The notes under the pieces were generated by a model that was not told where the DNA came from, made no database searches, and saw only the letters and a program-made list of their open reading frames with translations. Made by a program: the position numbers and the translations under genes. Of a stretch of 64,000 nucleotides of DNA, positions 33,175-59,790 are shown in pieces. The first letter of the stretch is position 1. Each line of letters opens with the position of its first letter. Source of the DNA: Minisyncoccia bacterium (lineage in GTDB: Bacteria; Patescibacteriota; Minisyncoccia; UBA6257; JAAZHW01); contig JBNASH010000035.1 in NCBI GenBank assembly GCA_049720475.1, positions 20,015 through 84,014 on the forward strand, in the 5' to 3' direction.

Positions 33175-33786
33175 CTATTTAATTCTTTTTTTAGTATTCT
33201 GAATAATTCCGTCTATTATGCCGTATTCTTTGGCATCTGGAGCGCTCAAATAAAAATCTCTGTCAGTATCCTTCTCAATTTTCTCTAATGGTTGACCAGT
33301 GTGTTTTGATAAAATCTCATTTATTTTATTTTTGATTTTTAAAATTTGTTTGGCAGTTATTTCAATTTCTACCGCTTGACCTTCGGCTCCTCCCATTACC
33401 TGGTGCAACAAAATTTCGGCATTGGGAAGCGCAAATCTCTTGCCTTTCGTTCCAGCTGCTAACAATACCGCCGCCGCTGATGCCGCTTGACCCAAACAAA
33501 TTGTTGAAACATCGGGCTTAACATATTGCATTGTGTCATAAATCGCCAACGCCGAAGTTACAATTCCGCCTGGGCTATTGATATAAAATTGAATATCTTT
33601 TTTGGGATCCTCATGCTCCAAAAACAAAAGCTGAGCAATAATGCTATTTGCTACCGCATCATTAATTGGACCGCCCAAAAAAATTATTCGCTCTTTTAAT
33701 AAACGCGAATAAATATCATAAGCCCTCTCACCAAATTGTGATTTTTCAATAACTGTTGGAATTAAATTAAAATATTCTTCTTCCAT
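33175..33786 (-). CDS. clpP: ATP-dependent Clp protease proteolytic subunit
   Basis: INSPGG ... [14 protein letters not shown] (Ser) ... LLHQVMGG (His) catalytic-triad context. Confidence 0.9.
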
Positions 33787-33797
33787 ATTTTTGTTTT

Positions 33798-35087
33798 TTA
33801 ATTATTGACTTGATTTTCTAAAAATTGAAAGACTTTTTCATTGGTTAATCTTTCTTTAGTATATTCCATAAGCGCCGACCTGTCAATTTGATTGATATCA
33901 ACACCTTCCATTGCTCGTTGGTTCAAAATCTCTTCCATGGCCTCATTTATCTCTTCTGGCGACGGCTCACAATTTTCCAATTTGGCAATAGTTCTTAAAA
34001 TAATAAATCCTTTTAATGTTTTCTCCGCTTCTTTTCTTAACTCTTGTCTCAGCTCTTCTTCTTTTTTGTTTATCTTTTTTAAATATTCCTCAAATGTTAA
34101 TCCTTGATCTTCAATAAGATGCTTCAACGAATGGAATTGATTTTCGGTTTCACCATCAATTAAAATATCGGGCAATTCGATTTCGGTTTTTTCAATTAAC
34201 TTTTCGAGCAATAAAATTCGCAACCGCTCTTTTTCTTTTAGATCCTTTTCCATTAAAATCCCCTCTCTGATAGAATTTTTTAATTCGTCTAGACTATTGA
34301 AATTCCCCAAACTTTTTGCCCATTCATCATTTAGTTCTGGCAATTGCCTCTCGCTAACGTTTTTTACTTTAACCTCAAAATTTAATTCTTTTGATCGCAA
34401 ATTCTCCTTCCAATAATCATCTGAAATTTTTATCGAAATTTTTTTCTCTTCATTTTTGGATAGACCCTCTAGTTGTTCTTCAAATCCTTTGGGATATCTT
34501 CCCTGGCCCAAAATAAAACGATCAATTTCTGGAAATTCTTTTGTTAATTCACCATCAACAAAACACTTTGTTTCTATTTCAATAACATCATCTTTTTGAG
34601 CTGGTCGATCAACCTCAACAATTTTAGCACGAGATTTCTGTAACCATTCAACTGCTTCATTAATTTCTTTATCTGAAACTTCTAAAGTTCGCTTTTGCTT
34701 AAACACATCTTTACTAAGAGCCTTATAATCACCTAATTTTGGTTTTGGTAAAATCGCACTTTTTAGAGTGTATACAAATTCGTTTTGGGGAGCAATCTTT
34801 TTAATATTAACTTCTGGTTGACCAATTAATTCCAAATCTAATTCATTTATAATATCATTAAGACTTTTTCGAAATGCCAAATTGGCTGCCTCATCAAAAA
34901 TTTTTTCTTCTAGATCAGTATTTTTGATTAATTCTTCTGGAATGTTTCCCTTACGAAAACCATTTAGGTTAACTTCTTTTAAAACCTTATCTTTGGCTAA
35001 TTTCCAGAAATTCTCCATTTCTTCTGGAGATAACATCACCTCTAATTCAATTTGGGATTTTGGTAAATAAGAAATTTTGTGATTCAT
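33798..35087 (-). CDS. tig: Trigger factor
   Basis: N-terminal ribosome-binding domain (GFRKGNIP) and a PPIase-like middle domain. Classic tig-clpP linkage. Confidence 0.8.
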
Positions 35088-37742: not shown

Positions 37743-38813
37743 TTATCTTTTTGAAGAAACCAAAGAATAACGGCCATCAGGCAACTTTTTAAATAATTGT
37801 TTATCCTGAAGGTTAATCAAAACAGTCATGTCTTTAACCAAACGTTGTTTCGCAACTTCTTTAAGAATATCTCGGAAATACATTGGTTTTTTCGCTAAAA
37901 TTTGAATTAAAATATCCTTAACAGTTCCCTCTTGATATCCCCACTCTTTTAAAGCATAAATTCCCCTTCCTACCAAAACAAAAGGATCTCCTTTAATTAA
38001 TTCATTGTGCAAACTATTAATAGAAATTTTTTTGTCGTCAAAATTTAATTCTTTGATCTTTTGAAGAATCTCTTCATAATGCATCGGCTGATTCATCTTC
38101 TTTAAAATTAAATAAGCTTTAGTTTTAACATTACGAGGTTTTATCCATTCCCAATCAATCAATCCAAATTCACCAAAAGGATTAAAAGCAAATTTCTTGG
38201 ACACATCCAAATAAGAAACCACTAGATTTTCGTTATAAATTCGGAATTCTTTCATTGTTTTTCTTAACAACAATTGATATTCATCCAGCATTAATGGTTT
38301 TTTGTGAATTTTCACTTCTTTCTCAACAAACTTATAAATATTTATGGCTTTATTAAGATATTCCTCTTTTAAATACCAGTTGGAATAGATATTTGGTTTT
38401 TCCAAAAAATAATTGAAGTCAGGACTTAAATCTAACAAAAAATTAATATGGTTTGCCCATTGATTTTTTACCTTATCATTTGTCCAAAGCTCTATAGGAT
38501 CCTCAATTAACAAAACCGGAGCTTCTTCTAATAATCTCTTTTCTCTTCTAATACCACCGATTATTTCCAACTGATATTTAATACGCTCCAAAATATCATT
38601 TAACTCATTAAGATTTTGTCTAAGTTTGTTTAAAGCAACGGATTCGATCTGACGAATTCGCTCACGCGTTAAACCCTTTTCCTTACCAATCGCTTCTAAT
38701 GTCAGTGGTTTCTCGTTTGTCAAACCATACCTTTTTTCAATAATTTCTCTCTGCTTGTCTGGCAAAATTCCAATAAATCCTTTAATTGTTTGAAGTAAAC
38801 TTTTGCTATTCAT
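37743..38813 (-). CDS. DNA-binding protein with an N-terminal sigma-70 region-4 HTH and a C-terminal HARE-HTH-like domain
   Basis: LTLEAIGKEKGLTRERIRQIESVALNKLR equals the sigma-70 r4.2 consensus. The C-terminal PMHYEEILQKIKEL ... FVLVGRGIYALKEWGY matches the HARE-HTH pattern. Confidence 0.6.
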   Translation of the reverse strand: MNSKSLLQTIKGFIGILPDKQREIIEKRYGLTNEKPLTLEAIGKEKGLTRERIRQIESVALNKLRQNLNELNDILERIKYQLEIIGGIRREKRLLEEAPVLLIEDPIELWTNDKVKNQWANHINFLLDLSPDFNYFLEKPNIYSNWYLKEEYLNKAINIYKFVEKEVKIHKKPLMLDEYQLLLRKTMKEFRIYNENLVVSYLDVSKKFAFNPFGEFGLIDWEWIKPRNVKTKAYLILKKMNQPMHYEEILQKIKELNFDDKKISINSLHNELIKGDPFVLVGRGIYALKEWGYQEGTVKDILIQILAKKPMYFRDILKEVAKQRLVKDMTVLINLQDKQLFKKLPDGRYSLVSSKR

Positions 38814-49934: not shown

Positions 49935-50142
49935 TTATATTGTTTGACACTTAAAATTGGATTAATAAAGAAACATTGCCCAGGGGGGCATTAATTTATA
50001 ATTTTTTTATCTTTTTATCAAAAATTGAGTCAAAGTTTTGAAAAATAAATTATTTTAAATTATTTAAATAAAGTAACTAAATTTAGTTGATTGTATACTA
50101 TACTATTCAAAAAATTTTTTTTGTCAAGTATTTATTAAGCGA

Positions 50143-52680
50143 TTAATTCTGCTTCCGGGCTTCAAATTTTTCATTCTCATAAACTAATAAAACTTTGTCA
50201 CCAGCAGTAAAATCGTTTCTCAAAATTCCCTCAGCCAATAAACTTCTAATATTGTCGCTAATAGCATTTCTTAACGGCCTTGCGCCATAAACCGGGTCAT
50301 AACCAATTGCCACCAATTGTTTAATTACCGATTCATCAAAAATCAGTTCAATACCTTTTTCTTCTTTGAGATTTTTTGCCAAATCATTGAGCAATAAATT
50401 GGTAATAGCAATTAAATCTTCCGGTCGAAGAGGTCTAAAAACGATAATATCTGAAAAACGATTAAGTAATTCTGGTGGGAAATATTCGGTTAATCGCTTT
50501 TTTAATTCCGCTGCAATATCTTTAATATCAACTCCTTCTTCAATTCGTTGCTTAATTAAATTAGAATGAGCGTTGGATGTGGCAATAATGATAGTATTTG
50601 TAAAATCAATGATTCTGCCAAAATTATCGGTTAAACGACCATCATCAAAAACCGAAAGAAAAATATTAAGCAGATCAGGATGAGCCTTTTCAAATTCATC
50701 AAGCAAAATTAAAGCGTATGGTTTTTGACGAATTGACTCCGTTAAAATACCTGCCTTATCTCCTTCGGGCGTCCCAATAAAATCAAAAATGCTTTTTTTG
50801 TCCTGATATTGCGACATATCGAAACGAACCATTGCTTGTTCGGAACCAAACTGAATGCGCGCTAATGTTTTTGCCAATTCGGTTTTACCAACACCAGTTG
50901 GTCCAACAAAAAGAAAAGTTGCAATAGGACCGCCTTTTCTTGATAAACCTGCCCGGTATTCTCGCAAAGCCCTACTCACTTCTTTTACTGCCTCTTCTTG
51001 GTCAATTAAACGTTCGTGAATTATTTCTTCTAGATTAAGCAGTTTTTGCGCCTCTTCTTTGCTCGCCACCGTTAGAGGAACGTTAATTTTTTGTTGAGCC
51101 ACCCGCACAACATCTTCGCTTCTTACTATTTTTTGACCCAGATTTTTAACATCAGCAACTACTTCTTTCAAAAAATCATCAGCACTCAAAGGTAAGAGTT
51201 TGTCTCTAAAATATCGATGAGCGATATTAACAGCGTTTTTAATCGCCGGATAAGTAATTTGGATTTTAAATCTTTTTTCTAAAATTAAAGAAGAATAAAT
51301 CAGAAAAAGTATAGCCTCATTTTCGCTAATTTCTTCTACTCTTACAGTTTCAAATAAACTAATAAAATCTTTTTTGTCTTCTAATTCTCTTTTAAGAATA
51401 TCGGGTGTGGTAGAGCCGATTGTTTGAATCCCTGATTTAGATATCATTGGTATCAATATTTCAGCGGCTTGTAAATAACCCTGCGTTGAAGTTTTAAATA
51501 AATTATGAATATCAGGAATAAATAAAATAATATTATGGGCGACTAAAATTTCATTGATAATTTTTTTCAATCGTTCGGTAATAGTTATTGCATCACAACC
51601 CGCCACCAACTCATCAATTGACAACATTACTAATCTTTTATCAAAAAGTTCTCGCGGCACTTCATCTTTACTAATCAAATAAGCAACATGTCTGACAATA
51701 GCGCCAATACCAACTGATGGTTCACCAACTAAAAGAACATTATTATTGCTAGCCCGAGATAAGATATTAATTACTTGCCTTAATTCTTTTTCATGACCAA
51801 TCAAAAATCCAACCTTTTCCAAACGCGCTAAATTAGTTAAATCAGTGCTAAAATTATCTAATGTGGGCGTTGGTCGAGCGGTCCAAGCGCGATTCATGAT
51901 TCTTTGTCTTTTGTGTTTAAATTCTTTTACAAAAGCGCGTCGTTCTTCAGGTATCACTCGCCATTTTTTAACCTGACTTGCAAATTCGGCAAAAACAGCT
52001 GCTAAAGTGATATCTTTTTCATTCAGTCGAAAATAATTTTTTAATCGCTCAATTTCGCTGTTTTGAATATAAAAAATTGCCGAAAAAACATCTTTGCTTT
52101 TAATATAATTTCTATCGCGCAAAAAATAAGCGGCAGCCACCAATTCACTCACCATCTTAATAATCTCCCTCTTCGCCTTTTTTTCTGAATTTTTGCTTAA
52201 TAAATCATTGATGGCCGCTTCAACTTCTTCGGGTTCAAGTTCTAATTTTTTAAAGACATCTCGAAATCGTTTGGATGTTACAAATTCATTTAATAAATGC
52301 AGATAAAAATTGCCACCTTGTAAAATTGTTTTATCATAGGCGGATTCAATTATCTTTCTAATAGAAATTTCACAATAAGGCAAAAGATTTATTTTTAATT
52401 CGGGGTTTTTTAAAATTTGTTTTTCGAATTGACGGTTAAAAATTTTTTCGGGTCGATTCAAGTTAAGCAAGCGATCAAGAATAAAAAGCACCAAAAAATA
52501 GCCCAAAAATCTCAACGAAGATTCCCTCATTAAAATAAACATTACTGCTAAAACAGTAATTCCAACCCAAAACAAAATAACCATCCAACGCACAAAAACT
52601 CGTTCAAAAAATGTCATCTCCAAACGCGTATCACGATAAAAAAATTGTTCTTTGTTGCCAACGATATTCATACTAAGCAA
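50143..52680 (-). CDS. Membrane-anchored Hsp100/Clp-family AAA+ ATPase with a degenerate first nucleotide-binding domain
   Basis: Two N-terminal TM helices. D1 Walker A reads GEPSVGIGA (no Lys/Thr). D2 has an intact Walker A FVGPTGVGKTELAK and Walker B ILLDEFEKAH. No M-domain and no IG(F/L) ClpP-docking loop. Confidence 0.65.
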   Translation of the reverse strand: MLSMNIVGNKEQFFYRDTRLEMTFFERVFVRWMVILFWVGITVLAVMFILMRESSLRFLGYFLVLFILDRLLNLNRPEKIFNRQFEKQILKNPELKINLLPYCEISIRKIIESAYDKTILQGGNFYLHLLNEFVTSKRFRDVFKKLELEPEEVEAAINDLLSKNSEKKAKREIIKMVSELVAAAYFLRDRNYIKSKDVFSAIFYIQNSEIERLKNYFRLNEKDITLAAVFAEFASQVKKWRVIPEERRAFVKEFKHKRQRIMNRAWTARPTPTLDNFSTDLTNLARLEKVGFLIGHEKELRQVINILSRASNNNVLLVGEPSVGIGAIVRHVAYLISKDEVPRELFDKRLVMLSIDELVAGCDAITITERLKKIINEILVAHNIILFIPDIHNLFKTSTQGYLQAAEILIPMISKSGIQTIGSTTPDILKRELEDKKDFISLFETVRVEEISENEAILFLIYSSLILEKRFKIQITYPAIKNAVNIAHRYFRDKLLPLSADDFLKEVVADVKNLGQKIVRSEDVVRVAQQKINVPLTVASKEEAQKLLNLEEIIHERLIDQEEAVKEVSRALREYRAGLSRKGGPIATFLFVGPTGVGKTELAKTLARIQFGSEQAMVRFDMSQYQDKKSIFDFIGTPEGDKAGILTESIRQKPYALILLDEFEKAHPDLLNIFLSVFDDGRLTDNFGRIIDFTNTIIIATSNAHSNLIKQRIEEGVDIKDIAAELKKRLTEYFPPELLNRFSDIIVFRPLRPEDLIAITNLLLNDLAKNLKEEKGIELIFDESVIKQLVAIGYDPVYGARPLRNAISDNIRSLLAEGILRNDFTAGDKVLLVYENEKFEARKQN

Positions 52681-53035
52681 TAGCTTTAACTAATAAAAAG
52701 AAGGGCACAAAAGCCCAGAGTAAATAACAAAACATTACAAAAACGACCACAATTAAATAAATCAGCGACCCCAATAAAATTCTTAATGTTCTAAAAATAA
52801 ATCCTAAAATATAGCCAACAATGGTTCGATCTTGATAAAGAGGTTCAAACCAGTGTCGAATGGTGATTTTGACCGCAAAAATTTTATCCAATTTTTCTAA
52901 GTTTTTTAAAAGAAAATCCCAAAAACCAACAAAACTATTAACATACCAATCTTTTAAAAAGATTTTGATTCTTTTAAAAGCAAGGGAAAAAAGGTAAAAA
53001 ATGGCGAATCGATTCATAATTAAATTATATATCAA
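52673..53035 (-). CDS. Small hypothetical membrane protein (120 aa)
   Basis: Hydrophobic ORF overlapping the Clp-like gene start by 8 nt. Confidence 0.35.
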   Translation of the reverse strand: MIYNLIMNRFAIFYLFSLAFKRIKIFLKDWYVNSFVGFWDFLLKNLEKLDKIFAVKITIRHWFEPLYQDRTIVGYILGFIFRTLRILLGSLIYLIVVVFVMFCYLLWAFVPFFLLVKAIA

Positions 53036-53041
53036 AATATT

Positions 53042-53608
53042 TTATTTATCCATTTGCCTCAAAGAAAATTCACAGCCACAATATTTCTGATGATAAAGAT
53101 TTAATTTTTTGGCCAATTCTCTCGTTTTTTTCCACAATTCTTTTTTATCTTTTTGAAACATCTTTTCAATCTCTGAAAAAGCTAAAAAAGTAATTTCTCC
53201 ATTCAAACTCATTTTCCTGCCTATTTCATTTATTAAATCTTCTGATTTATAAGGGCTAATTGGTAGTGTTGTTGAAAAATATTTAATTTTGTTTTGAAGC
53301 GCATAATCTATTGTTTTCCCCAAACGTTCTTGAAAACAAACTTCGCATCTTTTTCCTCCTTCGGCTTCTTTTTCTAGCCCCTTTACTTTTTCTACCCAAC
53401 TATCATGATCGTACTTTTCAACAATTAAATCCACTTGATACTCTTGAGCCAATTTTTTAACCGATTCCAAACGCTTGTAATATTCCTCTTCTGGCCAAAT
53501 GTTTGAATTGCAATAATACAAAATCACTTCAAATTTTTCTTTTAAAAGTTCGATGAGATAAGCGCCACAAACTGCGCAACAAATATGTAATAAAATTTTT
53601 TCTTTCAT
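53042..53608 (-). CDS. queH: Epoxyqueuosine reductase QueH (DUF208 family)
   Basis: LLHICCAVCGAY Cys cluster and a C-terminal CGCE motif. 4-nt overlap with tgt. Confidence 0.65.
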   Translation of the reverse strand: MKEKILLHICCAVCGAYLIELLKEKFEVILYYCNSNIWPEEEYYKRLESVKKLAQEYQVDLIVEKYDHDSWVEKVKGLEKEAEGGKRCEVCFQERLGKTIDYALQNKIKYFSTTLPISPYKSEDLINEIGRKMSLNGEITFLAFSEIEKMFQKDKKELWKKTRELAKKLNLYHQKYCGCEFSLRQMDK

Positions 53609-54708
53609 ATTTTATTCTTCTTTATCGCCTGACGAATTTCTCTGATTAAATCAAGATAAAATTTTAAATTATGGAGAGTGGCCAGACGGTAATAAAGCAG
53701 TTCGTTATTTTTATAAAGATGGTGTAAATAGGCCAGACTAAAATTCCGGCAGTTTTCACAATCACAATATAGATCTAATTTTTTACTACTTTCTTTATAT
53801 TTGCTTTTGCCAATTTCAACAATCTCATATTTTAAATTATTGTTAATTAAAATATTCTTATTTTTTCTCACAAAAAGCTCGCCATGACGCGCATGGCGCG
53901 TTGGAATCACACAATCAAACATATCTATACCCTTTAAAATAGCTTTAAAAATTTGTTCTGGGTAACCAACGCCCATTAAATAACGTGGTTTATTTTGCGG
54001 TAAATGCGGGATTAAAAAATCTATCATCTCAAACATTTTCTTCTCTGGCTCGCCAACAGCCAACCCACCAATCGCATAACCATCAAAATCAAGCATTAAT
54101 AATTCATTTAAGCTTTTTTCTCTTAAATCCTTATAAATTCCTCCTTGAATAATTCCAAAAATTAAATTTTTAAAATGTGTCCGCTCAGCATAACGCTTTG
54201 ATCTTTTGGCCCATAAAGTAGTGATCTCCACCGCTTTTTTGACTTCTTCTTTTTTGGAAGGATAACCCACGCAATAATCCAATACCATCGCAATATCAGA
54301 ATTAAAATTTTTTTGAATGTCTAAAACTTTTTCAGGGGTTAAAAAAATTTTTTGGCCATCAACTTCTGAACGAAATTCTACTCCAGCTAAGTTAATTTTT
54401 CTTAATGGCGATAAAGAAAAAACTTGGTAGCCACCGGAATCGGTTAAAATCGGCCTCTGCCAATTCATAAAACCATGGAGTCCATTTAATTTTTTTATAA
54501 TTTTATCGCCCGGTCGTTGAAAAAGATGATAAGTATTGGCTAAAATAATTTCCGTGCCAATATTCAAAAGATCATTGCTTGTTAAAGCCTTAACGCTGCC
54601 ACGAGTAGCAATAGGCATAAAAAAGGGTGTTTTAATTGCTCCATGTAAAGTTTTTAATTCACCCAAACGGGCAGCGCTTTTTTTAGATTTTTTAATTACT
54701 TTAAACAT
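53605..54708 (-). CDS. tgt: Queuine tRNA-ribosyltransferase
   Basis: LTDSGGYQVFSL catalytic Asp, LMGVGYPEQIF, and the Zn site CDCENCRNF ... H. Confidence 0.85.
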   Translation of the reverse strand: MFKVIKKSKKSAARLGELKTLHGAIKTPFFMPIATRGSVKALTSNDLLNIGTEIILANTYHLFQRPGDKIIKKLNGLHGFMNWQRPILTDSGGYQVFSLSPLRKINLAGVEFRSEVDGQKIFLTPEKVLDIQKNFNSDIAMVLDYCVGYPSKKEEVKKAVEITTLWAKRSKRYAERTHFKNLIFGIIQGGIYKDLREKSLNELLMLDFDGYAIGGLAVGEPEKKMFEMIDFLIPHLPQNKPRYLMGVGYPEQIFKAILKGIDMFDCVIPTRHARHGELFVRKNKNILINNNLKYEIVEIGKSKYKESSKKLDLYCDCENCRNFSLAYLHHLYKNNELLYYRLATLHNLKFYLDLIREIRQAIKKNKI

Positions 54709-54710
54709 AT

Positions 54711-55985
54711 TTAAAATAAGGTGCTGGTTGGAGCTATTACTTCATTTTCTCCAAAAATTTTTATCTTTCCATACTCGCCATCAAAACCAGGTCGAATATT
54801 TAATTTACCATTGCGCACCCGATCAATCGCCTCTTTTAATTCATAGCTCGACTCTTTTTCAATTTCTTTCAGATCCACATCTAATAAAATTTTAAGTTCG
54901 TTACCAAAAATATTAATTAATCTTTCAAATTCATTTTGAACCTTTTTTGATTGCGGTGTTGTTTTTAAAACCTCGGCCAAAATTTCTTCTAACGGAACCA
55001 TCTTTTTGTATGGCGGCCGATCTTTAGCAATATAATTTTCATCCCGATCAGCCAAATCTTCCACTCGATGCATTACTCCAATGGTCAATGGCCGGTGGCA
55101 TTTAGAACAAATGTTGTTTAATTTTTTGCTTTCCTTTGGCGATAAAACTACATTACATAATCTATGGCCATCATAATGATATTTCCCTTCTTCTGGGAAA
55201 AATTCAATAGTGAAAAGAAACTTTTGTGAATTTTTGCGATAATTAACCGGGATGCCAAATTTGATTGCTTCAATAATTTCTTTATAAGAAAGTTCGGTAT
55301 CGAAAACATTTGCTTCGCGACCAATTTTTGATAAAGAATGAGAGTCGGAATTAGAAATAATGGCTAAATTATCTAGCCGGGATAAACGCCAATTCATCTG
55401 AGGATCAGAAGACAAACCCGTTTCAATAGCAAAAATTTTAGGAGTGTATTCTTTGCCGAAGCATTCCTCTAAAGAATCGAATCCCGACATTGAGCCAAAA
55501 AGCGAAAACCAAGGCGTCCAAATATGAGCAGGGATTATAACAATTTCATCTGAAATAGAAAAAAGAAGCTTACAAAGTTCAATTGTTGATAATCCCAAAA
55601 TCGGCCGACCATCAGATGCTAAATTCCCTTGCCAACTTAGAGCCACATTAATTTTTTCCACCACTTCAAAAGATGGCGCTAAAATTAAATGATGAATTCT
55701 TCGCGTTTTACCGCCCTGAGAATAAATGCAAGAGATTTCTGTTGACAAAATAAAGCGGCTAATGTTTTTTTCATCATTGTCTTTCTTAAATTTAAACAAA
55801 CCGGGTTCAGCCGGCTCTAAATTTTCTTTTAATTCTTGAAACCATTGGGGATGGGTAAAATCGCCTGTTCCTAAAATATTAATCCCTTTCTTTTTCATCC
55901 ATAAATTTAAATTTTCAACCGTAATATCTCGCGCGGTCGCTCGAGAAAAACGAGAATGAATATGAAAATCGGCAATTAACTTCAT
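54711..55985 (-). CDS. PHP-domain phosphoesterase with a Zn ribbon, endonuclease Q-like (COG1379 family)
   Basis: N-terminal FHIHSRFSRA metal-binding motif. 424 aa. Internal C-x-x-C / CSKCH cysteine cluster. Confidence 0.5.
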   Translation of the reverse strand: MKLIADFHIHSRFSRATARDITVENLNLWMKKKGINILGTGDFTHPQWFQELKENLEPAEPGLFKFKKDNDEKNISRFILSTEISCIYSQGGKTRRIHHLILAPSFEVVEKINVALSWQGNLASDGRPILGLSTIELCKLLFSISDEIVIIPAHIWTPWFSLFGSMSGFDSLEECFGKEYTPKIFAIETGLSSDPQMNWRLSRLDNLAIISNSDSHSLSKIGREANVFDTELSYKEIIEAIKFGIPVNYRKNSQKFLFTIEFFPEEGKYHYDGHRLCNVVLSPKESKKLNNICSKCHRPLTIGVMHRVEDLADRDENYIAKDRPPYKKMVPLEEILAEVLKTTPQSKKVQNEFERLINIFGNELKILLDVDLKEIEKESSYELKEAIDRVRNGKLNIRPGFDGEYGKIKIFGENEVIAPTSTLF

Positions 55986-56560
55986 AATTTATAAATATAA
56001 ATTGTTTCTAATTTTTTAGGAGATTCTATTATTTTTATCGGTTTTAAAGTGGGAAAGGTAAAAGTATTAGAAATAACAATTGATCCTTTTTTCGCTTCTT
56101 TTTTTATTTTTGGTTCTAATTTTAAAAGAAGTTCGGGAAAAAGAAAAGTATAAATATAGTCAAATTGCGATAAATTAACTTTGAATATATCGGCGCAATA
56201 AAATTTTAAATTAGACCGACGATTAAAAATTTTTGCAAATAAATAAAGCAGTTGATTATTTTCATAACCAACAAATTGAACCTTTGGAAATTTTTTGGCC
56301 AAGTCATAAATAAATCCCCCATCGCCAGATCCTAAATCACAAAAACTATTATTTGGTTTCAAAATATCCAGTTCTTTTAATCGTTCTACAATAATCTTTT
56401 TTGATTTCACAAAGGGCACCCCTGTCTTTAAACTTGAGATCCAAAAGGCCAAAAAAATAAATAATAAAACAACTCCTAATAAAACCAAAACAAATAAAAT
56501 AAAAAATAAAATAAAATAAGCGAATGGCAAAGAGAAATCCATAAAGCAATTATACCGCAA
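55982..56560 (-). CDS. Class I SAM-dependent methyltransferase with an N-terminal TM segment
   Basis: CDLGSGDGGFIYDLA glycine-rich SAM motif I. Hydrophobic N-terminus. 4-nt overlap with the next gene. Confidence 0.55.
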   Translation of the reverse strand: MRYNCFMDFSLPFAYFILFFILFVLVLLGVVLLFIFLAFWISSLKTGVPFVKSKKIIVERLKELDILKPNNSFCDLGSGDGGFIYDLAKKFPKVQFVGYENNQLLYLFAKIFNRRSNLKFYCADIFKVNLSQFDYIYTFLFPELLLKLEPKIKKEAKKGSIVISNTFTFPTLKPIKIIESPKKLETIYIYKL

Positions 56561-56627: not shown

Positions 56628-56715
56628 GGAGGCGTGGCCGAGTGGTTTATGGCGCTGGTCTTGAAAACCAGTTGAGGGCAAAACCCTCTCGGAGGTTCGA
56701 ATCCTCCCGCCTCCG
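56628..56715 (+). tRNA. tRNA-Ser (anticodon TGA), class II
   Basis: Acceptor GGAGGCG/CGCCTCC, anticodon stem CTGGT/ACCAG, loop CTTGAAA, long variable arm, T-arm GGTTCGAATCC. Confidence 0.85.
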
Positions 56716-56725
56716 CTAAATAAAA

Positions 56726-57459: not shown

Positions 57460-59337
57460 TTATTCTTTGACAAGTTTTTTCAAAATTTCTTGAAGCTCTT
57501 CTTCAGAAAAGAAATTAATGGTAATCTTTCCCTTATTGCCGCGTCTTTTCACTTCAACTTTTGTGCCAAAAATTTCTTCTAATTTTCTTTCAATCTCTTT
57601 TTCCAAAGCATCACCCAAATCGCTGACTGAAACTTCTTGATGTTTTTGAACAAACTGACCAAGAGGCATTTCTAAAATACGCCTTGTTAAAATTTCAGTT
57701 TCTCTCACCGTTAATTTTCGCGATAAAATTTCACCAAGCAATGCTCTTTGCTTTTCCGGATTTTGAATAGTCAAAAGTAAACGAGCATGTGACTCAGTAA
57801 TTTTTCCTTCTTCCAAAGCTCTTTGCGCTTCAGAAGGTAATTCTAAAAGCCGCAACATATTCGCCACATAAGCGCGACTTTTTCCAATACGTTCCGCAAT
57901 CTCTCTTTGTGGTAAACCAAATTCATCAGCTAATTTGGCAAAACCCCTAGCAGTTTCTAAAGGATTTAAATCTGCTCTTTGAATATTTTCAATAATGGCA
58001 GCTTCTAATTTTTGCCTCTCTTCCAAAGACGGCCGAACAATCGCCGGCACTCTTTCCAATCCCAATAACTGCGCCGCCCGCAATCGTCTTTCACCAGCAA
58101 TTAATTGATACTCCACTCTTCTTCCAAAGTCCGTTTCTTTCTCAATGCGCGAAACAATCAGTGGTTGTAAAATACCATATTCACGAATAGAATCAGCTAA
58201 TTCTTTAAGTGATTCATCATCAAAATTTTTTCGTGGCTGATAAGGATTGGGTTTAATTTTATCAACTTCAATTAAATATACTGCCTCCCGAATCGGACCC
58301 AAATCTTCTTCAATTAAATTCTTCATTTCTTCTTTTTGTTCTGTTTTTTCTTCAATCTTTTCTTCAGTCTTTGGCTCATTAAAAATTATTTCTTTTTCAT
58401 TTCTTTCGCTCTTTAATTCTGGCCATAAAATTTCTGGATAAATACCTTGTTTAATCAAATTGCTAATCGCTTCCTGAACTTTTGGTTTGTCTTCGGGATA
58501 AGTCACGCCAAACCATTTATCTTCAGTTGGCAAAACTGTTACCTGAGCTCGTTTTTCGCGCAATAATTGACCAATAATTTCAGAAATATAAAATTCGCTT
58601 TTCTCTGGATTTTGAAGATTTAATAAAAATTTATAAAAACGCGTTTCCAATTCATAAAAGATACTGGGCGTAAAACCAAAAAAATTCATTGAAACAATTT
58701 CATCGCCCGTTAATTTCAACCAGGTATCAAATTCCTCAAATTTAATTCCATCTTCGAATTTTTGAATTTTTGTTCGTTCTTTTAAATCAATTAAATATCC
58801 TTCGGGTGAAATTTCACAAACGCCGCGCGAGACAGCACCGTAATCTGAAAGAGTGTTTTTCAATTGATAACCAATCATTAAATAGTGGTACAAACCTTCT
58901 TCATCACTTAAATCTTTTAACGCATCGGCCATTTTAATAAAAGCATCGCGACCATAAAAATCATCGGAATTAATAATAGCAAAGTTAGAGTCAATAACAT
59001 TTTGGCAAAGCAAAATTGCATGGCCCGTTCCCCAAGGTTTCGTTCGGTTGGCCGACAAAGAAAACCATGATGGTAATCCTTTATTTAAATCTTGAAAAAC
59101 ATAAGAAACTTTAAAAATTTTTTCAGCTTGATTACCAATCTTTTCTTTAAAAATTTCTTCTATATCTTTGCGAATCACAAAAACAACATGATTAAAACCA
59201 GCCTGTTTGGCATCATAAAGAGAATAGTCAATGATTAATTCTCCATTAGGACCAACTGGATCAACTTGTTTTAATCCGCCATAGCGACTGCCCATTCCAG
59301 CCGCCAAAACTACCAATGTTAAATCTTTACTTTCCAT
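57460..59337 (-). CDS. parB: In-frame fusion: N-terminal sugar-phosphate nucleotidyltransferase domain (about 337 aa) plus a C-terminal complete ParB/Spo0J (about 288 aa). An internal ATG at 58326 would give a standalone ParB.
   Basis: N-terminal LAAGMGSRYGGLKQ ... KPWGTGHA (GlmU/RmlA/GalU-type). C-terminal IKPNPYQPRKNFD, GERRLRAA ParB box, HTH REIAERIGKSRAYVANMLRLL. Lys/Glu-rich linker with no stop codon. Confidence 0.7.
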   Translation of the reverse strand: MESKDLTLVVLAAGMGSRYGGLKQVDPVGPNGELIIDYSLYDAKQAGFNHVVFVIRKDIEEIFKEKIGNQAEKIFKVSYVFQDLNKGLPSWFSLSANRTKPWGTGHAILLCQNVIDSNFAIINSDDFYGRDAFIKMADALKDLSDEEGLYHYLMIGYQLKNTLSDYGAVSRGVCEISPEGYLIDLKERTKIQKFEDGIKFEEFDTWLKLTGDEIVSMNFFGFTPSIFYELETRFYKFLLNLQNPEKSEFYISEIIGQLLREKRAQVTVLPTEDKWFGVTYPEDKPKVQEAISNLIKQGIYPEILWPELKSERNEKEIIFNEPKTEEKIEEKTEQKEEMKNLIEEDLGPIREAVYLIEVDKIKPNPYQPRKNFDDESLKELADSIREYGILQPLIVSRIEKETDFGRRVEYQLIAGERRLRAAQLLGLERVPAIVRPSLEERQKLEAAIIENIQRADLNPLETARGFAKLADEFGLPQREIAERIGKSRAYVANMLRLLELPSEAQRALEEGKITESHARLLLTIQNPEKQRALLGEILSRKLTVRETEILTRRILEMPLGQFVQKHQEVSVSDLGDALEKEIERKLEEIFGTKVEVKRRGNKGKITINFFSEEELQEILKKLVKE

Positions 59338-59454: not shown

Positions 59455-59540
59455 GCCCAGGTGGCGGAATTGGCATACGCGGAGGACTTAAAATCCTCTG
59501 TCTTTCAAAAGACTTGTGGGTTCGAGTCCCACCCTGGGCA
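59455..59540 (+). tRNA. tRNA-Leu (anticodon TAA), class II
   Basis: Acceptor GCCCAGG/CCTGGGC, anticodon stem GAGGA/TCCTC, loop CTTAAAA, variable arm TGTCTTTCAAAAGACT, T-arm GTGGGTTCGAGTCCCAC. Confidence 0.85.
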
Positions 59541-59740
59541 CAAATGAGCGAAGCGAATTTGGGCCCAGGGAGAAAGCCAACTGCTTGGCTTTCGTTGGGA
59601 CGAGAAAGCCCGCAGCGATGGGCGAGTTTGAGCGAAGCGAAAGGCGAGCACCGCGAGGGGCGGCCTGCGAGAATCTGCCCTGCCTGCCGGTAGGCAGGCG
59701 TCAGGCAGATTACTTGTAGGCGAGTCCCACCCTGGGCACA
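59541..59740 (+). other. GC-rich, hairpin-dense roughly 175-bp insert ending in a second copy (59722-59740) of the tRNA-Leu 3' end GAGTCCCACCCTGGGCACA. Candidate integration scar, miniature element or tRNA-linked structured RNA.
   Basis: 19-nt perfect direct repeat. Local GC far above its surroundings. Internal repeat TGAGCGAAGCGAA at 59545 and 59629. Hairpins GAAAGCCAA/TTGGCTTTC and ATCTGCC-CT-GCCTGCC-GGTA-GGCAGGC-GTCA-GGCAGAT. Also contains a copy of the acceptor 5' strand GCCCAGG at 59561. Confidence 0.5.
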
Positions 59741-59790
59741 TTAGAATCTATAATTTAGAAAGTAGAATTTAGAAGTTAGAATTTGGGATT
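59741..59790. repeat. Degenerate tandem repeats of (T)TAGAAT(T)T, about 6 copies
   Basis: Visible periodicity immediately after the duplicated tRNA end. Confidence 0.5.

Follow-up and report, generated by a model that had tools for sequence, protein, structure and literature searches.

Within a 64,000-nucleotide (nt) window of a Minisyncoccia bacterium genome (GenBank assembly GCA_049720475.1, contig JBNASH010000035.1, positions 20,015 to 84,014 of the forward strand), a tightly packed minus-strand operon ends in a gene for a Clp/Hsp100-like ATPase. We describe here this ATPase together with the small membrane protein encoded immediately upstream of it. The ATPase gene (50143..52671, minus strand) is an intact open reading frame (ORF) of 842 codons plus a stop that ends at 50143; its product is 100% identical to P0001, a protein of 842 amino acids (aa), and is recognized as a Clp/Hsp100 relative by both Pfam and Foldseek. 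An earlier annotation made from the letters of the window alone (the sequence-only reading) had started the gene at TTG 52680, giving 845 aa, but gene callers and the N termini of close homologues place the start three codons further on, at ATG 52671. The partner gene (52673..53017, minus strand) begins at ATG 53017 and stops with a TAG at 52673-52675, leaving a single base before the ATG of the ATPase gene. Its 114-aa product is 100% identical to P0271, which is annotated as a "hypothetical protein." As set out below, the conserved unit at this locus is the two-gene module of partner and ATPase, and the tgt-queH operon in which it lies does not belong to that unit.

A search with the full-length ATPase returned 1374 proteins at E ≤ 1e-10, and an alignment of 118 sequences was used for all column statistics. 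In the ATPase itself, Pfam matched AAA_2 (1.7e-49), ClpB_D2-small (3.8e-20) and AAA_lid_9, and the same scan gave no significant AAA match in the first AAA module. Among the NCBIfam models, ClpB (TIGR03346) scored 476.7 bits against a cut-off of 1232.1 and ClpA (TIGR02639) scored 437.2 against 993, while the ClpV, ClpK and ClpG models also matched far under their curated cut-offs. Scores so far below the cut-offs mark the protein as an Hsp100/Clp relative outside every named subfamily. In a phmmer search of PDB sequences, the leading matches were Staphylococcus aureus ClpC (8e-117), Escherichia coli ClpB (5e-115) and ClpA (1e-86); residues 264-512 and 517-840 aligned to S. aureus ClpC and E. 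coli ClpB, and residues 272-840 were collinear with ClpA over its span 167-741. The AlphaFold2 (AF2) model, built from the 118-sequence alignment, had a predicted local distance difference test score (pLDDT) of 83. Its top Foldseek matches were ClpC and ClpB protomers, with a TM-score of up to 0.81, from which we infer that the protein assembles as a hexamer. After an N-terminal hairpin, the order of its parts is that of class-1 Hsp100 proteins: a probable N-domain, D1 with AAA_lid_9, D2 (AAA_2) and D2-small.

The hairpin is predicted to be transmembrane (TM) and spans residues 21-72 (52456..52611, minus strand). AF2 placed helices at residues 21-47 and 51-69, and Kyte-Doolittle hydropathy detected TM1 in 112 and TM2 in 97 of the 118 family members. 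Over these homologues, net charge was +1.7 ahead of TM1, close to 0 within the short loop and +1.6 past TM2, a pattern that by the positive-inside rule predicts an N-in/C-in hairpin with both ends cytoplasmic. The model, the hydropathy across the family and the charge pattern thus agree with the two N-terminal TM helices noted in the sequence-only reading. That reading had the helices standing in place of a Clp N-domain, and here it probably has to be corrected. Residues 80-237 (51961..52434, minus strand) form an eight-helix domain in the AF2 model, and a family profile of this region, searched against the PDB, matched mainly isolated N-domains of ClpA, ClpC, ClpC1, ClpV and ClpD, full-length and in register, at weak E values of 0.07-0.8. 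The window ATPase itself has no Pfam Clp_N match; Clp_N was found in 2 of 15 members (best 1.3e-4) and in several database members, and the NCBIfam ClpA alignment begins at residue 110 of the ATPase, which is model position 8. The domain is probably a divergent Clp_N and, because it follows the hairpin, the hairpin would be an addition ahead of the N-domain and not a replacement for it.

Between the N-domain and D1 lies a family-specific linker motif, RQRIMNRAWTARPTPTLD (residues 255-272; 51856..51909, minus strand). Across the 118 sequences it is almost invariant as RHRIMNRAWTARPTPxLD, with N260, W263, T268, L271 and D272 fully invariant, and AF2 predicts the linker to be disordered (pLDDT <50 for residues 251-264). 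This conserved motif may contact the partner or the pore.

The D1 AAA+ module (51052..51849, minus strand) reads as a pseudo-ATPase in the ClpC/ClpB alignment, in column statistics and in regional identity. Its Walker A remnant, GEPSVGIGA (residues 316-324; 51700..51726, minus strand), has Ile for Lys and Gly for Thr; LLVGEPSVGIGAIV is aligned under VLIGEPGVGKTAIA of ClpC/ClpB, with strongly conserved flanks. Since GEPSVGIGA matches the GEPGVGKT of ClpC column for column, the Lys and Thr of the D1 P-loop are truly lost, just as had been read from the letters, and the alignment to ClpC and ClpB upheld the loss of the Walker A Lys. A canonical D1 P-loop hidden by misalignment was ruled out by the conserved flanks and by a regular-expression scan of the whole ATPase, which found a single GxxxxGK[ST] (residue 590) and a single hhhhDE (residue 654), both in D2. 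The Walker B remnant, ILFIPD (51511..51528, minus strand), has PD in place of DE family-wide: ILFIPDIH lies under ILFIDELH, the two columns hold P in 116 and D in 112 of the 118 homologues, and DE was present in none of the 63 genome copies scored. The D1 pore loop, scored as AGCDAITIT, aligns as AGCDAI-TITERLK under AGTKYRGEFEERLK, and the pore-loop Tyr (KYR in canonical D1) is gone. At the Arg-finger positions FISLFE lies under LERRFQ, with both fingers lost. None of the 118 homologues has an Arg at these columns or an aromatic in the D1 pore loop.

Column counts show how the D1 P-loop varies across the family. The Walker A Lys column holds K in 99 homologues, I in 9, R in 7, V in 2 and N in 1, and the following column, canonically S or T, holds E in 77, D in 16, G in 12, S in 9 and T in 2. 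At the columns of residues 322-323, most members therefore read G-K-[E/D] instead of G-K-[S/T], together with P-D at Walker B, as though Walker A had taken over an acidic residue from Walker B. Mean pairwise identity was 59% in D1, 68% in D2 and 35% in the N-domain, and such good conservation of a noncatalytic module points to a selected pseudo-ATPase and not to a decaying domain. Judged by its motifs, D1 is dead throughout, with Walker A, Walker B, the Arg fingers and the pore-loop Tyr all lost.

D2 with its D2-small domain (50146..51051, minus strand) has all of its ATPase motifs. It reads GPTGVGKT, LLDEFEKAH, TSN, NRF and GARPL in the window ATPase, and Walker A (GPTGVGKT), Walker B (LLDEFE), sensor 1 (TSN), the Arg finger (NRF, R738) and sensor 2 (GARP) were invariant in the 118 homologues, a sign of strict purifying selection. 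The description of D2 as intact in the sequence-only reading holds for these motifs but not for the pore loop. At the pore-loop position (GTPEGDKAG; 50749..50775, minus strand) the canonical GAPPGYVGHDDGG (G-A-P-P-G-Y-V-G-Y) gives way to GTPEG----DKAG, which is four residues shorter and has no aromatic; the GYVG loop is gone, and a regular-expression scan found no G[YFW][VIL]G motif anywhere in the window ATPase. The family consensus, G-[ST]-P-[DE]-G-x-[IVM...]-x-G, is likewise four residues under canonical length, and an aromatic was found inside this loop in 1 of the 63 genome copies scored. The structural model keeps the ClpC/ClpB-like protomer fold; by sequence, neither D1 nor D2 has an aromatic pore loop.

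Two further elements of Clp proteins are missing, in agreement with what had been read earlier. ClpC residues about 403-469 (some 60 residues of M-domain) are without counterpart, and the D1-to-D2 junction is ClpA-like and collinear with ClpA. From sensor 1 to the Arg finger, D2 has the length of ClpB, with a gap opposite the ClpP-binding loop of S. aureus ClpC, and no IG[FL] or VGF docking tripeptide for ClpP occurs in D2; the sole [ILMV]G[FL] is a VGF at residue 287, which is a D1 N-terminal motif. By alignment and profile score, then, the ATPase is homologous to ClpB, ClpC and ClpA yet fails their defining features: the D1 motifs, the pore loops, the M-domain or ClpP loop and the model cut-offs.

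The best 120 of the 1374 matches were nearly all 820-850 aa long, covered 96-100% of the query and came from metagenome-assembled genomes of Patescibacteria/Paceibacteria. The genomes are those of Wolfe-, Harrison-, Zambryski- and other Parcubacteria, to which a genome scan added Jorgensen-, Brenner- and Colwellbacteria; in that scan of 185,579 species genomes, 229 matching stretches place the family in at least 229 species genomes. When the N-terminal 300 residues were searched with HMMER against 1.84 billion cluster representatives, only 175 matches were returned, which indicates that the hairpin-bearing ATPase architecture is a narrow, lineage-specific one. As far as these matches define it, the ATPase belongs to a narrow family of the Patescibacteria (Paceibacteria/Minisyncoccia), about 840 aa in length, whose members share the hairpin, the noncanonical D1 and the tyrosine-less pores. 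More than 100 alignment columns are invariant across the 118 homologues, including every D2 catalytic residue. The clade that contains the window ATPase (P0001-P0010, L001 and L002) has additionally lost the Walker A Lys (G-I/V-G) and the aliphatic residue of the D2 loop, which becomes D-K/R-x-G (D-K-A-G, D-[KR]-P-G), and by these columns it is the most degenerate of the family. Database entries name family members "ClpC," "ClpA" or "Clp protease ATP-binding subunit," names that imply a ClpP partnership that the sequence does not support. We found no paper on this ATPase family in the literature on Patescibacteria/Parcubacteria Clp proteins or on membrane-anchored or pseudo-ATPase Hsp100 proteins.

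The partner is a small helical protein. Its AF2 model (pLDDT 91.5) consists of a 46-residue helix, a short helix, a P-L-Y-Q-D loop, a 37-residue helix and a short C-terminal helix. The last 35 or so residues are strongly hydrophobic, and Kyte-Doolittle hydropathy scored a C-terminal TM segment in 79 of 79 sequences, while the N-terminal segment never reached the TM threshold in any of them. From this we read the partner as a protein of the tail-anchored type whose helical hairpin is cytoplasmic. The PLYQD loop is invariant, and invariant residues of the protein include R16, F20, W24, LYQ (60-62), LGFIFR (71-76), R79 and W101. The 37 database homologues, all of about 112-125 aa, are "hypothetical proteins." The partner matched no Pfam or NCBIfam family and no PADLOC entry, and Foldseek found no PDB fold match for its model at E ≤ 0.001.

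To describe the gene neighborhoods we fetched 80 loci carrying the ATPase family, from the 229 matching stretches, and searched them with the proteins of the window. The partner lay directly upstream of the ATPase on the same strand in 78 of the 80. Of the two remaining loci, one is truncated at a contig end. In the other, L021, there is no partner ORF just upstream (2519-2981), and the ATPase gene is adjoined by two small ORFs on the opposite strand, which from their sequences seem to be a HicA/HicB toxin-antitoxin pair. The distance from the partner stop to the ATPase start had a median of −2.5 nt; it was ≤20 nt in 63 of 70 loci, and the genes overlapped in 39 of 70, compared with 48% and 19%, respectively, for background same-strand neighbor pairs in the same loci. 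In a Wolfebacteria genome, independent NCBI gene calls gave the same arrangement: a 125-aa protein without a Pfam match, a 4-nt overlap with the ATPase gene and then an MFS_1 protein. The sequence-only reading had named a "small membrane protein" in passing; its presence is confirmed, and its adjacency to the ATPase in 78 of 80 loci makes it a genuine conserved partner, translationally coupled to the ATPase and kept throughout a candidate phyla radiation class.

The window operon runs in the order methyltransferase, PHP protein, tgt, queH, small protein, clp, with junctions of −4, +2, −4, +24 and +1 nt, so that the tightly packed minus-strand order described earlier is borne out. Pfam and NCBIfam assigned the four upstream genes, all on the minus strand: queH (53042-53608), tgt (53605-54708), an EndoQ-like PHP/TIGR00375 gene (54711-55985) and, as the first gene of the operon, a TM-anchored S-adenosylmethionine (SAM) methyltransferase (55982-56560). 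The methyltransferase has a strongly hydrophobic N terminus (residues 4-51) and a weak match to NF041081, an archaeal protein-lysine methyltransferase model (37.8 bits against a cut-off of 200). These genes (53042..56560) are likely cotranscribed with the module in the window's clade only. A plus-strand tRNA-Ser (56628-56716) bounds the operon upstream, and a terminator-like hairpin found by consensus scan only (49977..49990, minus strand) lies in the 208 nt that separate the clp stop from the start of rpoB. A promoter scan was uninformative, with 30 matches against 31.1 in shuffled sequence.

Among the 80 loci, queH was near the module in 2, tgt in 3, the methyltransferase in 2, rpoB in 3 and the PHP gene in 16. 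The queH, tgt, methyltransferase and rpoB linkage is essentially that of L001 and L002, the closest relatives, which have the P-loop without Lys and carry the rearranged operon in full, with rpoB downstream. Because the linkage is confined to a single rearrangement among the closest relatives, it does not support a functional link to queuosine, and the position of the module beside queuosine genes is a clade-specific accident of gene order. ORF clustering identified a more frequent neighbor: a half-size MFS_1 (major facilitator superfamily [MFS]) protein of 219-228 aa was encoded directly downstream of the ATPase in 48 of the 69 loci with at least 1 kb of downstream sequence, at a median gap of 2.5 nt. 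It covers positions 7-173 of the 347 in the MFS_1 model (for example, L081 8569-9255). The MFS gene is absent from the window by tblastn and from L001 and L002, and in the window's clade rpoB follows the ATPase gene instead. Looser recurrent neighbors among the 80 loci were Nudix (45), PolX (43), UDG (22) and the PHP/TIGR00375 gene already counted, which lies upstream of the module (L016, L025, L032 and L039 among others), and the module often sits in a neighborhood rich in such DNA-repair genes.

Elsewhere in the window, a clpP gene (33175-33786, minus strand) directly follows that for trigger factor (together spanning 33175-35087) and is adjoined not by clpX but by a plus-strand tRNA-Leu. 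Scanning of the window ORFs gave no ClpX and no further Clp ATPase, and which ATPase partners this ClpP is therefore not evident from the window. A 625-aa minus-strand protein (57460-59337) fuses an NTP_transferase domain of the sugar-nucleotidyltransferase type (residues 9-276) to a complete ParB (ParB_N, HTH_ParB and ParB_C), and a 356-aa minus-strand protein (37743-38813) has the unusual domain order of an N-terminal Sigma70 region 4 (residues 15-66) and a HARE-HTH domain at residues 229-291. A 78-aa minus-strand ORF (59505-59741) that overlaps the plus-strand tRNA-Leu(taa) (59455-59541) is almost certainly spurious.

We propose that the ATPase is a membrane-tethered Hsp100 derivative, driven by D2 alone and working with a small membrane cofactor, that remodels membrane-proximal clients. 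For this general picture we estimate a probability of about 0.5, and for any specific client a much lower one. The N-terminal TM hairpin would tether the ATPase to the membrane on its cytoplasmic side. Given an N-terminal anchor and a ClpC/ClpB-like hexamer, the membrane side would be that of the N-domain and D1 ring, with D2 on the cytosolic side, and a substrate entering the channel in the usual D1-to-D2 direction would come from the membrane side. D2 would be the sole motor, and the D1 ring would support assembly or act as a scaffold. Having neither aromatic pore loops nor an M-domain nor a ClpP loop, the ATPase most likely does not act as a processive disaggregase or as the partner of a protease; with no M-domain, coupling to DnaK as in ClpB is impossible. 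The missing tyrosine grip, in the window's clade with no aliphatic residue either, favors short-range, ATP-driven remodeling or extraction over processive unfolding, and the clients that the ATPase may remodel or extract would lie in the membrane or close to it. As an obligate cofactor in the membrane, whether anchor, adaptor or regulator, the small subunit would sit beside the TM hairpins and project its helical stalk toward the N-domain and linker. The logic of such a mechanism would resemble that of Torsin with LAP1/LULL1, or of FtsH minus its protease. The membrane-tethered, single-active-ring Hsp100 of the sequence-only reading is supported by these results and had been understated, the D1 Walker B, the Arg fingers, the pore Tyr and the D2 GYVG loop being lost as well.

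Several points weigh against this proposal. In most family members the second residue of the shortened D2 loop is still aliphatic (I, V or M), so some threading is possible outside the window's clade, and a probable, divergent Clp N-domain is kept, as in true unfoldases. Torsin has no Arg finger of its own and the window ATPase keeps one, which makes the analogy partial. Finally, the ATPase might be its hosts' only Hsp100, acting as a general chaperone.

These points lead to the alternative that the ATPase is a conventional threading unfoldase or disaggregase that replaces ClpB or ClpC, is merely membrane anchored and grips its substrate with nonaromatic loops. We regard this as doubtful, though it deserves serious attention, since the D2 ATPase motifs are fully intact, a probable Clp N-domain is retained, the protomer fold is ClpC/ClpB-like and the D2 loop reads K/S/E-[I/V/M]-[S/A]-G in most family members. 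The D1 pore loop of p97/Cdc48 is a nonaromatic K-L-A-G, which the usual D2 loop of the family resembles. Against threading, both rings lack an aromatic at the pore loop, the D2 loop has four residues fewer than the canonical one, the window's clade does without even the aliphatic residue, the missing M-domain leaves no ClpB-style DnaK coupling and D1 could not add ATP hydrolysis. Partnership with ClpP in a membrane-anchored ClpCP-type protease seems very unlikely to us: the window does encode a ClpP with no adjacent clpX, and "Clp protease ATP-binding subunit" is among the database names, but D2 has no IG[FL]/VGF loop, the region is of ClpB length with gaps opposite the S. aureus ClpC loop and the 437 bits scored on the NCBIfam ClpA model fall far short of its cut-off, 993. 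That the protein is a decaying, functionless Clp remnant is next to incredible. Catalytic motifs have been lost progressively, most of all in the window's clade, but the 842-codon ORF is intact, family length is uniform at about 820-850 aa, over 100 columns are invariant, all D2 catalytic residues included, and at least 229 species genomes contain a member.

Gene order suggests two other functions. The module might serve a transporter, with ATPase and partner assembling, gating or quality-controlling the half-size MFS protein; the directly adjoining MFS_1 gene in 48 of 69 loci, on which independent NCBI gene calls agree, speaks for this, but the gene is gone from the window, L001 and L002 while ATPase and partner persist, and the frequency of adjacency is near that of the unrelated syntenic PolX (43 loci) and Nudix (45), so that we think this improbable. 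A coupling of the ATPase to queuosine salvage or tRNA modification, raised in the sequence-only reading, we consider more improbable by far. In the window the ATPase does follow tgt and queH at junctions of a few nucleotides, an order repeated in L001 and L002, but a search of related genomes found the whole operon in essentially those two of the 80 loci; queH (2/80) and tgt (3/80) owe their proximity to one shared rearrangement, and elsewhere the module lies among unrelated housekeeping genes. An anti-phage defense ATPase was also considered and rejected, as PADLOC gave only generic ClpB-like similarity (DolB, 112 bits, and PDC-M37B, 114, against 477 for ClpB) and the context is one of housekeeping genes.

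The proposal of a membrane-tethered remodeler can be taken a step further, into a model that is speculative and that we think rather unlikely in its full form. ATPase, partner and, in most relatives, the half-size MFS protein would make up a membrane-embedded AAA+ machine peculiar to Paceibacteria-type candidate phyla radiation (CPR) bacteria, with a 6:6 stoichiometry, about 18 TM helices coaxial with a tyrosine-less ring and a nonthreading mode of action, in which the RIMNRAWTARPTP linker and the PLYQD loop of the partner would form the functional contact. If true, such a machine would either carry the Torsin-cofactor principle over to bacteria or serve the symbiont envelope as an AAA+-driven dislocase or as a gate, acting on membrane proteins or transporters.

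Hsp100/Clp motors are textbook threading machines, with two ATPase rings and tyrosine pore loops. Here, an ultra-small and probably symbiotic lineage keeps an 840-residue Hsp100 under strong selection with a dead ring, no pore tyrosines, a membrane anchor and a previously unnoticed partner. ClpB, ClpC and ClpA are its best sequence and structure matches and share with it the order of parts after the hairpin and the D2 catalytic motifs. Compared with them, the window ATPase adds the TM hairpin and the small membrane partner and loses the D1 motifs and the D2 GYVG loop; it has neither the M-domain of ClpB and ClpC nor the ClpP loop of ClpA and ClpC. FtsH has two N-terminal TM helices that tether its hexameric AAA+ ring at the cytoplasmic face, where small membrane proteins associate with it. 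Only this principle of anchoring by two TM helices is common to FtsH and the window ATPase: FtsH combines a single AAA module, whose pore loop is aromatic, with a fused M41 metalloprotease, whereas the window ATPase has two Clp-type modules, and no peptidase domain, M41 included, was found in its Pfam scan.

Two eukaryotic systems are closer in principle. In SMAX1, the Hsp100-derived D2 has a degenerate Walker A, and its GYVG loop is replaced by another motif (PMC12639087). SMAX1/SMXL/D53 proteins and the window ATPase are thus alike as repurposed Hsp100 scaffolds in which a Walker A has degenerated and another sequence stands in place of GYVG, but SMAX1 is a soluble nuclear repressor that has lost nucleotide binding in D2, whereas the D2 of the window ATPase is catalytically intact by its motifs and the protein is predicted to be membrane anchored. 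Torsin is related to Clp/Hsp100 proteins, has no aromatic pore loops, carries an N-terminal hydrophobic membrane domain, works with the TM cofactors LAP1 and LULL1 and has a nonthreading function; it lacks an Arg finger of its own, which the cofactor supplies (PMC5425593). The window ATPase shares with Torsin a Clp/Hsp100-type module without aromatic pore loops and an N-terminal membrane segment; under our proposal it would also share a dedicated TM cofactor, for which the partner encoded beside it is the candidate, and a role other than processive threading. Torsin, however, is a single AAA+ module in the lumen of the endoplasmic reticulum, whereas the window ATPase has two modules, is predicted to lie on the cytoplasmic side and keeps its D2 Arg finger, R738. 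The 114-aa helical partner has no degenerate AAA+ fold such as that of LAP1 and LULL1, and the likeness implies no homology of the partners. If the two proteins do form a functional machine, it would mark a lineage-specific envelope function in organisms of almost unknown biology and would show the reach of Hsp100 repurposing in bacteria, as Torsins and SMXL proteins do in eukaryotes.

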